Shown one piece after another: positions 46,978 through 61,172 of a stretch of DNA of 64,000 nt. Positions within the stretch are counted from its first letter, which is position 1; the number at the start of each line of letters is the position of its first letter. The translations under genes and the position numbers were made by a program. Source of the stretch: Planctomycetota bacterium (GTDB taxonomy: Bacteria; Planctomycetota; UBA1135; UBA2386); contig OZ245838.1 of NCBI GenBank assembly GCA_965228735.1, positions 7,040,001 through 7,104,000 of the forward strand, given 5' to 3'. The notes beneath the pieces are model-generated. The model was not told the DNA's origin. It searched no databases and saw only the letters and a list, made by a program, of their open reading frames with translations.

Positions 46978-48198
46978 CTACTTCGCGGCGGTCTCGACGC
47001 GGCGCAGCGCGATCCCGAGCGGCTTCGGCCCCGGATCACGGTTGCGCTGGTTGAAGCGCCACGCACCGCGCCGTTCGCCGACGGCGACGAGCTCGAAGCT
47101 CTCGAAGTCGCCCGTCTTGCTGTGCCAGCGTGACCGGCCGTAGAGCGTGGCGCGGTAGCCTTGCTGGCCGGCGTCCATCACGGCCTCGCCGCGATACTCG
47201 ATCGTCCAGACCGAGCGCTCGACCGCCGTTCGTTGCATGGTCAGGGTCGCGGTCTCGATGTGCTGCTCGCGCCAATGCGGCGCCTGGCCGCGAACGTTGT
47301 CGACGAGCACCTCGCGATAGAGCCGTCGCACGACCTCGTCGTCGACCGGTCGGGGTTTCTTGCTCTTCGTCACGAACACCTTTGGGTCGTCGAACGCGAT
47401 CCAGTTGCGGTTCCAGGCCCACTTCACGAACTCGGTCCAGTTGCGGTCGTCGAAGCGGTTGCGCTGATATCGGCGCACGGACTCGGGGTCGTCCATGCTC
47501 GCGAGGTCGCGCAATGAAACGGCGAATGCGAGCGCCTTGCCCTCGATGTCGGGCGGCATCACCCGGTCGGCGACCGGCACGGGCGCGTTCTCGTAGCCGC
47601 GCCGCTGGCGCAGCTTCTGCCAGCGCTGCAGCGCCCGGCGCAGGCGCTCGCGCATGTCCTCGCGGTCACCGCCGGCTGCGAACCGCCCTTCGAGATACTC
47701 GGCGTCGGGGCCGATCATGTAGATGCCCTGTTTGGTTCCCGGGTGGTTCCAGTCACCTTCGGGCATCGACTCGCCGTACTTGCGGAAGAAGCGGTGGGTC
47801 GGATCGTTCGCGATCCGCTGCACGTGCTGCGGGTTCTCGGGGTAGAGCCCGTAGGCCTCGTCGGCGACGGTGACGAACTCTCGGCTGAGCTTCTGGATCT
47901 CCGGGTCTGACCAGACCAGTTGGCGTCCGCGGACGCCGTTGTTTCAAGTGCAGCCGAGCGGGTGGCCGTTCATCGTCCAGAGCAGGATCGGGCGACCGAG
48001 CTCTCTGGCCTCCGCGATCGCCGGGCCGAGCCGGTTGCGCCAGCCGACCTGCTGGAACGACAGCTCGAGCTCGTCGGGCTCGATGGCCTCGAGCCAGTCG
48101 TCGAGGTTCTTCGGTCCGAGGGTGGGCAGCTCGGTTTGCGCGATGCTCGGCGATGCCAACGCGAACGCCAGCGCCACTGGCGACAGTGCGATCCTCAT
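46978..48198 (-). CDS. Secreted thioredoxin-like selenoprotein candidate (GCT-U, Sec85)
   Basis: Signal peptide; W...AIAEARELGRPILLWTMNGHPLGCT-TGA(47944-47946)-NNGVRGRQLVWSDPEI, open in frame for 321 more codons. Confidence 0.8.
47904..47937 (-). promoter_or_regulatory. Candidate SECIS region
   Basis: mRNA after UGA: GGCGUC-CGCG-GACGCC (+7..+22), then GGUCU-GGUC-AGACC (+27..+40). Confidence 0.55.
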
Positions 48199-48215
48199 GC
48201 GCGTGACCATACCGC

Positions 48216-52324: not shown

Positions 52325-55300
52325 TTACCGCACGACGAAGTCGCGTTCGATCTCGGTGCGGCTCGCCGGGATCGTGAGAGGTTGATCACGCAGCGGCTGA
52401 CCCATGCCACGTGAGATCGCGATCGTGTAGCTCGGGCCGCGGGTCAGCACGATGCGAAAGCGGCCGTCCTTGCCCGTGCTCTGCCAGCCGCTCACGGGGT
52501 GGAGTTCGAGCGTGCCGCCGTGCTGCGGCACGTGCGTTCGGCCGCCGACGATCGCGCTGCCGACCGGCTTCTTGGCATTGTCGATCGTGCGACCCGTGAC
52601 CGTGACCTCCTCGCGACCGACGTAGCGGCCGTCGCGGAACGGCACGAGGTCGATTCGCACCGGCGTCGGATCCCGGCTCGGCAGCGCATCGCAGCGGAAC
52701 CTTTGTTTTTCGAACGGATTCCGCACATGCACGTACCGAGCGTTCGGGTCGGCGTGGAACGTGAGCGCCTGTTCGCGGGCGTCGAGGCCCTCGGCGCGGA
52801 AGCGCCCCTCGGCATCCGTGCGCACGCTGACGGTCGTGCCGTCCTGCCCTTGCCCATTCACGTAGACCCGCCCGTTCGCCAGCGGCTCGCCCGCGACGGT
52901 TACGACGCCCGCTACGGCGAGTCCGGTCCAGCGCAGCGTGAAGACGTATCCCGGCTGCGCGTCCTTCGGCAGCTGCAGTGACCAGCGGCGGCCGTCCGGC
53001 GCGGTCACGTACAGGTAGGCCTCCGGCACGAGATCCAAGGGCACGCTGCCGTCCGCCCCGACGTCGACCGGCTCGTGATCGGGAAGCTGCGCCGCGGACG
53101 CGCGGGCGCGGAAGCCCTGGAACCCGCCATCGGGCCCTTCGCCGGCGAACGCGAGGAACGGGCGGATCGTCGGGTTGGCGGGAATCCGCAGTTCAACGAC
53201 AGGTCGTTCGCCGGCCGCGGCTTCGATGGTCTCGACGATCGCACCGACCCACGAGTGCTCGGCTGCCTGCCGCGGCGCAAAGACCTTGAGCTGGCCCGGG
53301 GCGAACGGGCCGAGTACGGCCTTGCCGGTGGCGTCGGTGCGGGCGCGCCGCTGCTGATGATCGACGGTTCCGATGGCGACGTTGTGATCGGCGCGCGGCT
53401 TGCCGTCCGGGCCGACGACGTGGACCTCGACGTGCACGGCGCCCGCGAGGTCGATCACGCGGTCGTCGTCGTCAGCCGCCACCGCTACCGCGAACTGCGC
53501 TTCGCAGAGCTCGCCGACGAACACCTCGCACAGGTAGTTGCCGGCCGGCGCCGTGAGCTCGAACTGGCCCTCGCTCGTCGTAGTCGCCGCGTCGATCACG
53601 CACTCGGTGTTGTGCTGCCAGTTGAGCTGATTGAACGGGCGCAGCTGCACGTTGGCGCCGGCTACCGGGTCCGTTCCACGCACGACGCGGCCCGCGAAAC
53701 GGGCCGGCGCGCCGGGTTCGAGCTGGACCTCGTGCGGCTGCAGGTCGGCGCCGAAGAGCTCGATGCGTTGCAGGACCGCCGGCCGATACCCGTCGGCCCA
53801 CACCGTGACATCGAGCTGACTCGGAAACACACCGCGATGCTCCCGCGGCATCTCGAGCACCTGCTGCGCCCGGAACGGCGCGAGCGCGAACCAGCCGTCC
53901 TCGGCGTGGAACGTGCCGGTGTGTCGCGGCGTGCCGTTGTCGTCCGCCGAACGGATTCGGATCGTCTCGATCGGTCGCCCGGTCGCCTTGTCCGTGACAT
54001 GGATCCGCGCCCCGCCCCAACGCGTCACGTGCACGGTGCCCGCCTCGTCGGTCGACAGGCTCGTCGACGTGATCCAGCGTTGCCCGTTCTGCTTGATGAT
54101 GTTGCGGGTCACGGTCCACCCCGGCGTGAGGCACGTGACGCTGACGCTCGTTGCGCCGACCCGCGCCGTGAAGCGGCCCTTGCCGTCGGTCTCCGTGAAC
54201 CACTGGCCGCCCTCGCCTTCGAGTCGGAGCCGCAGCGGTTCGGGGACCAGTTGTTCGTGGTCGGTGAGCACGAACCCGACGAGCTCGCGCACGGGCCACA
54301 GGCTGATCGTGAGGGCCGCGTTCGTCGCGCCGTCCGTGCTCGTGGTCGAGCGGACCACGCCGAACCGCGGGCCAGAGGTTGGGTCACCCTCGAACGCGAA
54401 CCGGCGCGGCGCGCGGCCGTCGGCGCGGGCCTCGACCACGACGCCGGTCAGGGGGACCGGCAGTGCGCAGCGGCCGTCCGAGTCGGTCGTGCGGCGCAGC
54501 AGCGCTGGCTTGGTCTCGTCCCGAGGCGGCACGAGGAACGGGTGCTCGGCGCCGCGCAGCGTGACGTCGAGGGGCAGGTCCCGTGGGATGCGAACGGATT
54601 CGCCGAGGTCGTGGGGGATGCCGGTCGCACCCATCTGCGTGGTGCCGGCGAGCTCGCGCTGCAGCTCGAGCAGCGTGAGCTCGCGGGGGCCGAACAGCGC
54701 GAGGTCGGCGCCTTCGATCGGCTGTCTCGTCACGCCGTCGATCACCTGCACGTCGAGAGTCCAGGCCGCTTCGACGACGGCATCGACGACGGGGGCGGCG
54801 ACGCGCTCGGCGGCCGCGGGTGTCACGTTCCGGTCGCTGGCGCGCTTCGGCGTCGACGGCTCGACGGACGCCGGGGTGGGGGCGGGTGCCGCTACGTGAT
54901 CGGTCCGTGGCGTGTCGCTCTCGCCCGGCCACCAGGCCACGCCGAGAACGGTCACGCAGACGGCGACGAGCGCTGTGAGAACGACGGTTTGCTTGCTCAT
55001 GACGATTCCCAGAACGGTGATGCCGGCGCCCGTTGCGGCGACGGCGCCCGCGGCCGCCTTGGCCGCGGTGAGGCGCGCGCCGGCGGCGATGACCTCGGTG
55101 CGGATCGCGGCGAGCCCGCGCGTCGCGGTCATCGCGGTCGCGGCGAGGGCGGTGGCGAGTCCCGCCGGCAGCGCGCGCCGCGCCATCTCGAGGCCGCGGT
55201 GGATCTGCGAGCGCACGGTCGCCGGGCTGCGGTCGAGGACGAGCGCGATCTCGGCCGGCTCCATGCCGTGCACGAGGCGCAGCAGGGTCGGCTCGCGGAA

Positions 55301-55696
55301 CGGTTCGCGCAGGCGTTCGATCGCGTTGCGGGCCGTGTCCGACAGTTCGCGGTCCGCGACGCCGTCGGCCGGCTGCGGCTCAGTGCCCGAGACCTGATCG
55401 CCGTCCGCGCCGAGGTCGGGCGAGCGTCGACTGCGGCGACGCTCGCTCTTGGCCCGGTTGGTCAGGATCCCGGCAAGCCACGGCGTGACGGACCGCTTGC
55501 CCTCGAAGCGGTCGGCGCTCTCGATGGCGGCGAGGAACGTGTCCTGCAGCAGATCTTCGGCGGCGGCGACGTCGCGGGTCAGGTGCGACGCGAGGCGCAG
55601 CAGCTCCGGCGCGACCCGGTCGAACAGCTTCGCGAGGGCGTCGACCTGATCGCGGTCGCGCCAGCGCAGAAACAGTCGGGTCGCTCGGTCTCGCAT
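52325..55696 (-). CDS. ECF sigma factor with TM helix and carboxypeptidase-regulatory-like repeats
   Basis: AAEDLLQDTFL, ATVRSQIHRGL; TM helix; repeated TD..GRF beta-sandwich motifs. Confidence 0.85.
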   Translation of the reverse strand: MRDRATRLFLRWRDRDQVDALAKLFDRVAPELLRLASHLTRDVAAAEDLLQDTFLAAIESADRFEGKRSVTPWLAGILTNRAKSERRRSRRSPDLGADGDQVSGTEPQPADGVADRELSDTARNAIERLREPFREPTLLRLVHGMEPAEIALVLDRSPATVRSQIHRGLEMARRALPAGLATALAATAMTATRGLAAIRTEVIAAGARLTAAKAAAGAVAATGAGITVLGIVMSKQTVVLTALVAVCVTVLGVAWWPGESDTPRTDHVAAPAPTPASVEPSTPKRASDRNVTPAAAERVAAPVVDAVVEAAWTLDVQVIDGVTRQPIEGADLALFGPRELTLLELQRELAGTTQMGATGIPHDLGESVRIPRDLPLDVTLRGAEHPFLVPPRDETKPALLRRTTDSDGRCALPVPLTGVVVEARADGRAPRRFAFEGDPTSGPRFGVVRSTTSTDGATNAALTISLWPVRELVGFVLTDHEQLVPEPLRLRLEGEGGQWFTETDGKGRFTARVGATSVSVTCLTPGWTVTRNIIKQNGQRWITSTSLSTDEAGTVHVTRWGGARIHVTDKATGRPIETIRIRSADDNGTPRHTGTFHAEDGWFALAPFRAQQVLEMPREHRGVFPSQLDVTVWADGYRPAVLQRIELFGADLQPHEVQLEPGAPARFAGRVVRGTDPVAGANVQLRPFNQLNWQHNTECVIDAATTTSEGQFELTAPAGNYLCEVFVGELCEAQFAVAVAADDDDRVIDLAGAVHVEVHVVGPDGKPRADHNVAIGTVDHQQRRARTDATGKAVLGPFAPGQLKVFAPRQAAEHSWVGAIVETIEAAAGERPVVELRIPANPTIRPFLAFAGEGPDGGFQGFRARASAAQLPDHEPVDVGADGSVPLDLVPEAYLYVTAPDGRRWSLQLPKDAQPGYVFTLRWTGLAVAGVVTVAGEPLANGRVYVNGQGQDGTTVSVRTDAEGRFRAEGLDAREQALTFHADPNARYVHVRNPFEKQRFRCDALPSRDPTPVRIDLVPFRDGRYVGREEVTVTGRTIDNAKKPVGSAIVGGRTHVPQHGGTLELHPVSGWQSTGKDGRFRIVLTRGPSYTIAISRGMGQPLRDQPLTIPASRTEIERDFVVR

Positions 55697-60238: not shown

Positions 60239-60265
60239 CGGGTCGCGGCAGTGGCCCGCGACCCG
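60239..60265. terminator. Hairpin between convergent genes
   Basis: cgggtcgcgg-cagtggc-ccgcgacccg, 10-bp stem. Confidence 0.45.
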
Positions 60266-60269
60266 GCTG

Positions 60270-61076
60270 CTACTTGCCGTTCTTCTTGCCTGCTTCCGCG
60301 CGCTTGTTCTTCAGGTAGGCGCGCCAGTACTTGCGGTACTTCTGCGGCACCTTCGGCGTGCTGCCGCGGTGCTTCAGTGAGTTGAGGTAGGGCTGCAGCT
60401 CACCCCAGGTCTCCGCGCCCTCACCCGGGCGGCCCGGGCCGGTGGCGTTCTCGGGCGGGTTGGTGCCGCGACGGTTCGCGCCGCGCGCGTCGCGTTCGTT
60501 GCCGTCCGCGGGTTGGCTCGCCTGCTGCTCGTCACCCTGTTCGGTCGGATCGCCCGTCGGCTGGCGGAGATCCTGCTTCGCGAACTCGGGCGTGCTGGAC
60601 TCGCGGCGGTTCTGCGGCGAGCGCTGCGACGCCGCGCCAGTCGCCTTCGAACCCGGCTCGTTCTCGCCGCGACCGCTCTGGTCTCGGCCATTCTGACGTT
60701 GCGACGAGTTGTTCTGGCCGGACCGGCCAGAGCCACCGCCGCTTCAATTGCCGCACTGGTCCTTCAGCTCGTGCAGCTTCTCGATGAGGCGGTCGATGCC
60801 ATCGGCAGCGGCCTTGCTGCCGTCCATCGAACGCGCGAGCTTGTCCTTCGACGTCGTGCGGCCGCTCTGTGACGCGCTCGACTCGAGGAGCATGCGGTCG
60901 ACGTCTTCGAGCTGCTCGGTGACCTCACGCGCGATCTCCTGGATCTGCCGCATGGTGTCGGACGTGGTCGGAGCGGTGCTTGCGTCTTGCGCGGTGAGCC
61001 GGGCTGGGCAGAACAGCAGCGTGGCGAACGCCAAAGCGATCGGTGCCGCGAATCGTCTCGGGTCAGGGCCGGTCAT
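60270..61076 (-). CDS. Secreted coiled-coil/low-complexity selenoprotein candidate (CGN-U, Sec111)
   Basis: Signal peptide; ...LKDQCGN-TGA(60744-60746)-SGGGSGRSGQ..., open in frame to WGELQPY...VPQKYRKYWRAYLK...TAG. Confidence 0.8.
60713..60731 (-). promoter_or_regulatory. Candidate SECIS hairpin
   Basis: mRNA UCUGGCC-GGUCC-GGCCAGA starting at +13 after the UGA, GGUC in the loop. Confidence 0.7.
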
Positions 61077-61172
61077 CGTCCATCTCCTTGGTGGTGACCA
61101 GTGCGGGGTGCCAGAGTCTTGGGGTGAGCAACAGAGGATACGGCATGGCGGGGCAGCCGTCGACCGGGTCGG

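Follow-up and report, generated by a model that had tools for sequence, protein, structure and literature searches.

Several catalogued selenoprotein families carry the CxxU motif: GrdA; SelW-like proteins; AhpD/CMD-like proteins; Trx7/PDZ proteins; and the TonB-receptor type with FCYXU. All combine an in-frame UGA with a downstream bSECIS element, and in all of them selenocysteine (Sec, U) and cysteine interchange. Catalogued selenoprotein families normally have Cys homologs throughout. The bSECIS consensus, as given in a recent selenoproteome review, comprises a loop of 3-9 nt; a stem of 4-16 bp; an MFE of -7.5 or below; and G in the first two loop positions, 16-37 nt from the UGA (PMC13188914). 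The planctomycete family described here shares the in-frame UGA, the downstream element and the Sec/Cys interchange, and its founding copy shares CxxU. It differs in lacking a recognised oxidoreductase or metal-binding domain, being all-helical plus disordered; in the spacing of its motif, which is not conserved; and in that most homologs have no Cys.

Table 1 of the same review lists 119 prokaryotic selenoprotein families, none of them described like this one (PMC13188914). Comparison with these 119, which set the family apart by Pfam and NCBIfam models and by description, gave no match. Planctomycetes, coiled proteins and signal peptides go unmentioned in the review text (PMC13188914), as do planctomycetes in the main text of two further papers (PMC13326102, PMC13745706). 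The literature searched held no paper on the family, although supplements and BSepDB could hold one.

The second described system is the Bat (Bacteroides aerotolerance) operon, including Rhizobium RL3499-RL3502 and Borrelia bb0170-bb0176, in which, as in the home operon of the present family, MoxR, DUF58, BatA and vWA are followed by membrane-anchored and exported subunits. Bat proteins have been proposed to supply periplasmic reducing power or to maintain envelope integrity, neither of which is proven (PMC5700661). In Leptospira biflexa, deletion of all bat genes left oxidative-stress tolerance unchanged (PMC3557215), and this speaks against a general redox role. MoxR-vWA pairs have also been proposed to insert metals (PMC3495828). 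No selenoprotein is described in a Bat system in the literature searched.

The window, the whole stretch of DNA analysed, spans 64,000 nt of contig OZ245838.1 from a Planctomycetota bacterium (host genome, G000; other G-numbers denote related genomes). Its gene of interest runs on the minus strand from 61076 to 60270, a frame of 268 codons when TGA is read as U. The table-11 ORF ends after 110 aa with KDQCGN; the TGA at 60746-60744 is codon 111, the sole recoded codon, and is followed by 157 codons and a terminating TAG. The initial annotation had the coordinates, the TGA and the open frame beyond it right and gave no strand; the gene lies on the minus strand only, and a plus-strand reading of 60270..61076 was rejected, since the plus frame is not the gene. 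Together, C108-G-N-U111 form the CxxU motif. The features, with the evidence for each in brackets, are as follows.

61084..61089, minus strand: RBS-like AAGGAG, 7 nt ahead of the ATG (sequence)
60270..61076, minus strand: full coding sequence, 268 aa including U111, ending in TAG (frame and coding score; homologs align end to end)
60990..61076, minus strand: predicted signal peptide, aa 1-29, ending at the family-conserved A-Q (hydropathy, alignment)
60753..60965, minus strand: predicted helical hairpin, aa 38-68 and 75-108 (AlphaFold2 model)
60753..60755, minus strand: Cys108 (TGC), final residue of helix 2 (kept in G001, matched in G020 only)
60744..60746, minus strand: in-frame TGA, putative selenocysteine 111 (frame, contigs, homologs)
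60701..60742, minus strand: SECIS-like stem-loop, upper stem 60731-60713, loop GGUCC (folding)
60417..60743, minus strand: G/S/Q/E/P-rich linker, predicted disordered, with a conserved RREN/ST-P-F patch (pLDDT, alignment)
60279..60407, minus strand: conserved WGxL...P..YR..Y tail with two short predicted helices (alignment, model)
60240..60264, no strand assigned: 9-bp G+C hairpin between the TAG and the stop of the convergent neighbour (sequence)

The last of these lacks a U-tract and may possibly mark the transcript end; a promoter and terminator scan around the gene found none by its rule, an Rfam search gave two chance matches only, far below gathering, and the listed sequencing runs include no RNA runs. 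The gene sits among unrelated neighbours, a carboxypeptidase-regulatory-repeat protein and the convergent gene, and is not syntenic with the G001 copy. The protein encoded at window positions 52325-55696 (minus strand) joins an ECF sigma factor to a long extracytoplasmic part that contains carboxypeptidase-regulatory repeats, and two further proteins with such repeats flank the finding.

A hexamer model trained on the host genome scores the frame at 0.38 after the TGA versus 0.27 before it, and the five other frames at -0.43 to -1.2; the score dips to -0.06 across the first 40 codons past the TGA, where the hairpin lies. No in-frame start codon occurs in the 130 codons that follow the TGA; none precedes the tail. 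The initial annotation had singled out codon 60744-60746 for a check against reads. Logan contigs from all four runs examined, representing four studies, bridge it unchanged, with no alternative letter or indel; such contigs drop rare variants, one of the four runs may be the source sample, and one differs from the window copy at two other places. These observations bear on a conventional reading, in which the TGA is a true stop in a pseudogene, a split gene or a miscalled sequence, and the hairpin arises by chance. Since the genome also has a stop-free paralog, it could tolerate a broken duplicate. Against this stand the recurrence of the TGA in four studies, the lack of a restart codon, and a downstream frame under codon selection.

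The upper hairpin begins at nt +13 after the UGA, has 7-8 bp, and opens its GGUCC loop 19-20 nt after the UGA, so the hairpin described in the initial annotation (7-8 bp at +13, GGUC in the loop) is borne out by folding. Its energy is -13.1 kcal/mol. For the 57-nt region the folding energy is -26.6 kcal/mol (z -3.4), a value equalled or bettered by 1 of 200 shuffled sequences. The hairpin agrees with the review's consensus (PMC13188914) on all four counts. In G001 the loop reads AGUCU, and a C-G pair of the stem is replaced by U-G.

The ease with which G+C-rich DNA folds is a point in favour of the true-stop reading. A loose version of the published bSECIS rule matched 29 of 30 family TGAs together with 61% of random TGAs, and was therefore dropped as uninformative. 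A strict rule was used instead: a loop of 4-6 nt starting G-G/U, 15-24 nt past the UGA, on a stem of at least 5 pairs. Since the target and host examples were already known when this rule was drawn up, the test is not blind. TGA 111 of the window copy passes, as do 26 of 39 family TGAs (21/30 in the order, 5/9 outside it) and 10 of 20 host TGAs picked by known-family protein motifs; the TGA of selD fails. By comparison, 43 of 2,558 terminal-looking TGAs pass, and none of 715 junction codons from 55 Sec-free homologs; the absence of the strict hairpin from Sec-free homologs argues against a chance fold.

The 13 failures are mostly first UGAs of double-Sec genes, behind which a strong hairpin still lies. 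Six double-Sec genes (G045, G077, G132, G133, G149, G151; loci L047, L131, L132, L135, L136, L138) place the second UGA inside the apical loop of the first hairpin, with a further rule-passing hairpin behind that second UGA. The G053 TGA has no convincing hairpin and fails both the strict and the loose rule.

The host genome encodes the complete selenocysteine apparatus for which the initial annotation had suggested looking: selA, selB and selD above cut-off, and a tRNA-Sec. The selD gene itself has an in-frame TGA. Because selB is above cut-off in 91 of 121 Planctomycetota genomes of a phylum sample, and selA is found in 60 of 61 relatives, this co-occurrence is weak, non-discriminating evidence.

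Databases annotate the family solely as hypothetical protein of Planctomycetota. A protein-family word search returned no Sec forms, because protein databases contain only shortened versions of them. A 40-row profile had matches, some weak or confined to the tail, in 320 of the order's 339 genomes; it also matched 73 of the 121 genomes of the phylum sample. Within the order, at least 23 matches bear a TGA (among the best 150 of 446 matches; the other 296 are weaker). All 23 were read, and among the matches listed they hold 30 TGAs, every one in a Gly/Ser stretch within about 30 residues after helix 2. Outside the order are 10 TGA-bearing matches; the 8 strong enough to read hold 9 TGAs, all at this junction. 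The totals are at least 31 TGA-bearing genomes (the host and 30 others) and at least 39 TGAs, in several orders of Planctomycetota. Eight genes have two TGAs, seven of them within the order, among the matches listed.

Cysteine takes the place of the TGA in other homologs. G228, G230 and G231 read GGTU where their congener G229 reads GGTC (TGC) and lacks the hairpin; likewise, at a second site, GGLU in six genes is matched by GGLC in three. Among stop-free representatives, Cys makes up 41 of 4,576 junction residues versus 5 of 26,675 residues elsewhere, an enrichment of about 48-fold, and 26 of 143 such representatives have a junction Cys (143 of 150 were counted; one fusion and six without the helix motif were left out). 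The alignment with G001 has 47 of 63 tail residues identical, with changes mostly at third positions.

A junction shared by at least 31 genomes and interrupted by TGA only, together with the Cys swaps, makes a true stop very improbable. The conserved TGA, the Cys swap, the hairpin statistics and the sel machinery instead make a real selenoprotein very likely, and TGA 111 is almost certainly recoded as selenocysteine, as the initial annotation had proposed, in a SelB-dependent manner.

The CxxU pair, which that annotation took as the defining feature, is confined to 3 of 31 TGA-bearing genomes (G000, G001, G020) among the matches listed. Elsewhere the junction reads lone U, CU, UxxC, U..C, U..CC or U..U. 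Most homologs have neither residue: 55 of 85 near-full-length homologs, in a TGA-enriched set, and 117 of 143 stop-free representatives lack any junction Cys or Sec. Homologs of this kind, non-Cys and without the hairpin, were named in the initial annotation as refuting evidence; they are indeed the majority, yet they do not show the TGA to be a stop. They indicate that the junction residue is optional and not needed for core function.

An AlphaFold2 model (40 rows, pTM 0.34) has helices at 38-68 and 75-108, a low-confidence linker, tail helices at 229-235 and 245-266, and no strands. The block from aa 41 to 110 has pLDDT 72-89, versus mostly below 50 over aa 121-186. Tail residues W224, G225, L227, P244, Y247 and R248 are invariant or nearly so over 40 diverse rows. 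The N-terminus has a hydropathy peak of 2.6 and no hydrophobic segment follows; A29, in the conserved A-Q, is nearly invariant. Judged from these sequence features, export to the periplasm is highly probable. Membership in the thioredoxin fold fails, since the model has no strands and the motif follows the C-terminus of a helix rather than sitting at the N-terminus of one, and the family does not keep the CxxU/CxxC spacing of thioredoxin-fold selenoproteins. The model predicts a Sec on a flexible hinge after a helical hairpin. In these respects the initial picture held: a probably exported 268-aa protein, without a thioredoxin fold, with Sec at the junction of a helix and a disordered linker, and with a conserved tail.

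Its remark that no such family was recognised is likewise matched by the searches. Foldseek returned generic helical hairpins only, none at E<=0.001; a PDB sequence search returned generic helical or poly-Q matches only; and neither Pfam nor NCBIfam gave a match near cut-off for P0002 and two other Sec forms. In the Atlas the stop-free paralog falls among Planctomycetota clusters without names; the nearest named cluster is DUF4175 (PF13779; score 0.78, 64 of 256 shared features), a lead only, and none of 40 family members matches any Pfam model, DUF4175 included. DUF4175 proteins have helical repeats and Q/G-rich linkers, a likeness to this family, and occur in similar operons.

The initial annotation missed the Bat-like operon context and the Sec-free paralog. 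In the host, the family member at G000:C1:314808-315593 is stop-free, has no junction Cys, and is the last gene of an operon encoding MoxR; DUF58; BatA; a vWA/GATase-like protein; a PQQ propeller; a prenyltransferase-like toroid; and helical proteins of 788 and 980 aa. The family thus supplies the small gene that closes a MoxR-DUF58-BatA-vWA envelope operon, and the window copy is a detached paralog that lies outside it. Unlike described Bat systems, the planctomycete operon adds the propeller, the alpha-alpha toroid, the two long coiled coils and the WGxL-tail protein. In one representative (P0101, 1,204 aa) the large coiled-coil subunit and the small member share one frame; a signal-peptide-like remnant is kept between the parts, so this fusion may be an assembly artefact.

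Among the matches listed, the 23 TGA copies of the order divide into 15 inside the operon, 6 apart from it, and 2 at contig ends. Five of the 15 stand in tandem with a stop-free copy (G053, G119, G132, G133, G137), and five genomes keep the two forms apart (G000, G001, G045, G149, G151).

This arrangement could reflect a selenium-dependent length switch, in which low selenium would yield only the exported helical hairpin, ample selenium would yield the protein with its tail, and the Sec residue itself would be incidental. The TGA falls exactly at the domain boundary and most homologs need no chalcogen, as such a switch would have it. The replacement of Sec by Cys at the exact codon, with hairpin loss, in G229; the enrichment of Cys at the junction; and the second TGA of eight genes, which a switch does not need, make it quite unlikely.

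The orphan copies (G000, G001, G020, G032, G291, G045) raise the separate possibility that a detached selenoprotein no longer belongs to the Bat-like complex and acts independently, perhaps as a protein that self-assembles and buffers redox state in the periplasm. The window copy also has a long branch from the operon paralog. This too seems rather improbable: the hairpin and tail retain family-conserved residues, the tail of the window copy being 79% identical in protein to that of the operon paralog; 15 TGA copies lie inside the operon; and in G020, G032 and G291, where unrelated DNA comes after the operon's large gene (cut by the contig end in G291), no full copy other than the detached TGA copy was found. 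That the window copy joins the complex of the MoxR-DUF58-BatA-vWA operon as its Sec-free paralog would is reasonably likely.

Sec may have reached its present distribution by repeated gain, by repeated loss from a Sec-bearing ancestor, or by transfer of a short junction. In a tree built with the junction removed, the window and G001 copies fall within a Sec-free clade, grouped with the G000 operon paralog (99/94). An AU test rejected a single origin for the window and G001 copies together with the G020, G032 and G291 copies (p 0.0008; 30 of 85 rows, junction removed, the tested group having been named after the first tree was seen). Over window positions 60298-60420, DNA identity between the tail and the operon paralog is 88-90%, with one identical stretch of ~36 nt, versus 60-80% elsewhere. 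From sequence identity, gene conversion is possible, and the position of the window copy may therefore be pulled toward the paralog. Caution is also advised by the spread across the phylum and by KCGxUSGG, which is nearly the same in the two groups.

A parallel case exists in a sister operon of the host, which has no MoxR in the stretch read. It encodes a 649-aa helical protein whose two TGAs fall in a Gly loop that follows a helix.

G000:C1:4484628-4486577 (L146:6629-8578), minus strand: paralogous large subunit of the sister operon (in-frame TGAs)

Its loci in 30 relatives have Sec (TGA) in 18, Cys only in 10, and neither in 2. This subunit resembles the small one in being likely exported and helical, in its Bat-like operon, in having its Cys/Sec on a Gly-rich loop that immediately follows a helix, in its variable spacing, and in its type of hairpin. 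It differs in belonging to another protein family and operon, and in having Cys/Sec in 28 of 30 loci versus a minority of the small-subunit family. In a model of the operon-1 large subunit, the matching site is a low-confidence loop between two long helices. Homology of the small hairpin to the last repeat of that subunit was not supported (profile probability 1%), and the shared loop position is therefore resemblance only.

The preferred reading is an exported selenoprotein whose Sec hinge serves a Bat-like envelope complex as an optional, reversible redox switch or cross-link, with a probability of roughly 0.45 for the chain as a whole. SelB would recode UGA 111 via the downstream hairpin to yield the 268-residue protein; the precursor would be exported to the periplasm; the helical hairpin and WGxL tail would attach it to the complex; U111 would pair reversibly with C108, or with the hinge of a neighbour, through an Se-S or Se-Se bond; and this bond would stabilise or regulate the assembly. 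The variable spacing and frequent absence of the residue argue for an accessory, non-catalytic role of Sec. Selenenyl-sulfide or diselenide chemistry has an even chance of being that role.

Alternatively, the hinges could be ligands for a soft metal (Cu, Zn, Hg, Ag), or for a cluster placed between adjacent subunits, with a part in sensing or in supplying the envelope complex. Such a site would suit the flexible Gly/Ser loop and its variable combinations of several chalcogens (U..U, U..CC, CxxCxxC, CxC), the nearby His of one clade (HPHxPGGxU), and the metal insertion proposed for MoxR-vWA pairs (PMC3495828). Many members have a single U or C, the spacing is not fixed, and the loci read contain no metal-resistance genes, all of which render metal binding unlikely.

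Extended to the group, the redox reading would make planctomycete Bat-like complexes selenium-stapled assemblies. Sec/Cys hinges, gained and lost repeatedly on the small or the large subunit, would lock and release a periplasmic scaffold by diselenide or selenenyl-sulfide bonds; Sec would serve structurally outside enzymes, in part through nested recoding signals with a second UGA in the first SECIS loop. This extension is speculative, and doubtful as a whole.

The host is rich in selenoprotein candidates: motifs assigned by eye to TlpA/Trx, Prx, Grx, MsrA, AhpD, deiodinase-like and HMA types account for at least 20 TGAs. The window holds a second likely selenoprotein, predicted to be exported, of 410 aa (46978-48210, minus strand; TGA 47946-47944). 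It has an NGHPLGCT-U motif with a hairpin behind the TGA, looks thioredoxin-like by eye, and has no Pfam or NCBIfam match; it may resemble eukaryotic selenoprotein N. Paralogs with a TGA at the same motif lie at G000:C1:3484699(+) and 6929513(+). Elsewhere in this genome, two DxNxDG-type repeat proteins (FG-GAP-like by eye) at G000:C1:3065085(+) and 406817(-) have a TGA in U-C..S.PQFVD, with a clear AGUUC-loop hairpin at the former. A small, likely exported protein at G000:C1:2372 and 2123 (minus strand; HMA-like by eye) has two TGAs (CSGIGG-U, VKGLG-U), with a hairpin behind each. Two TGAs at G000:C1:6694255 and 6693895 (minus strand) share one frame, a thioredoxin-like FQEVPG-U-KTC preceding an MsrA-like segment, possibly a double-Sec fusion.

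Together, these results very likely define an uncatalogued selenoprotein family across several orders of Planctomycetota. What is new is the predicted placement of an optional Sec on the hinge of a modelled, non-enzymatic envelope subunit. Annotation splits or truncates genes of the family. Pipelines based on Sec/Cys homology would tend to miss it, because it has no enzyme fold, an optional hinge Sec, and mostly Cys-free homologs. Genes with two UGAs offer natural material for testing overlapping SECIS elements. Moreover, the family offers a first chemical handle on the Bat/MoxR envelope operons, for which a periplasmic redox role has been proposed yet remains unproven. That idea can be tested directly on natural variants with U, with C, or with neither, which even occur side by side within a single operon.
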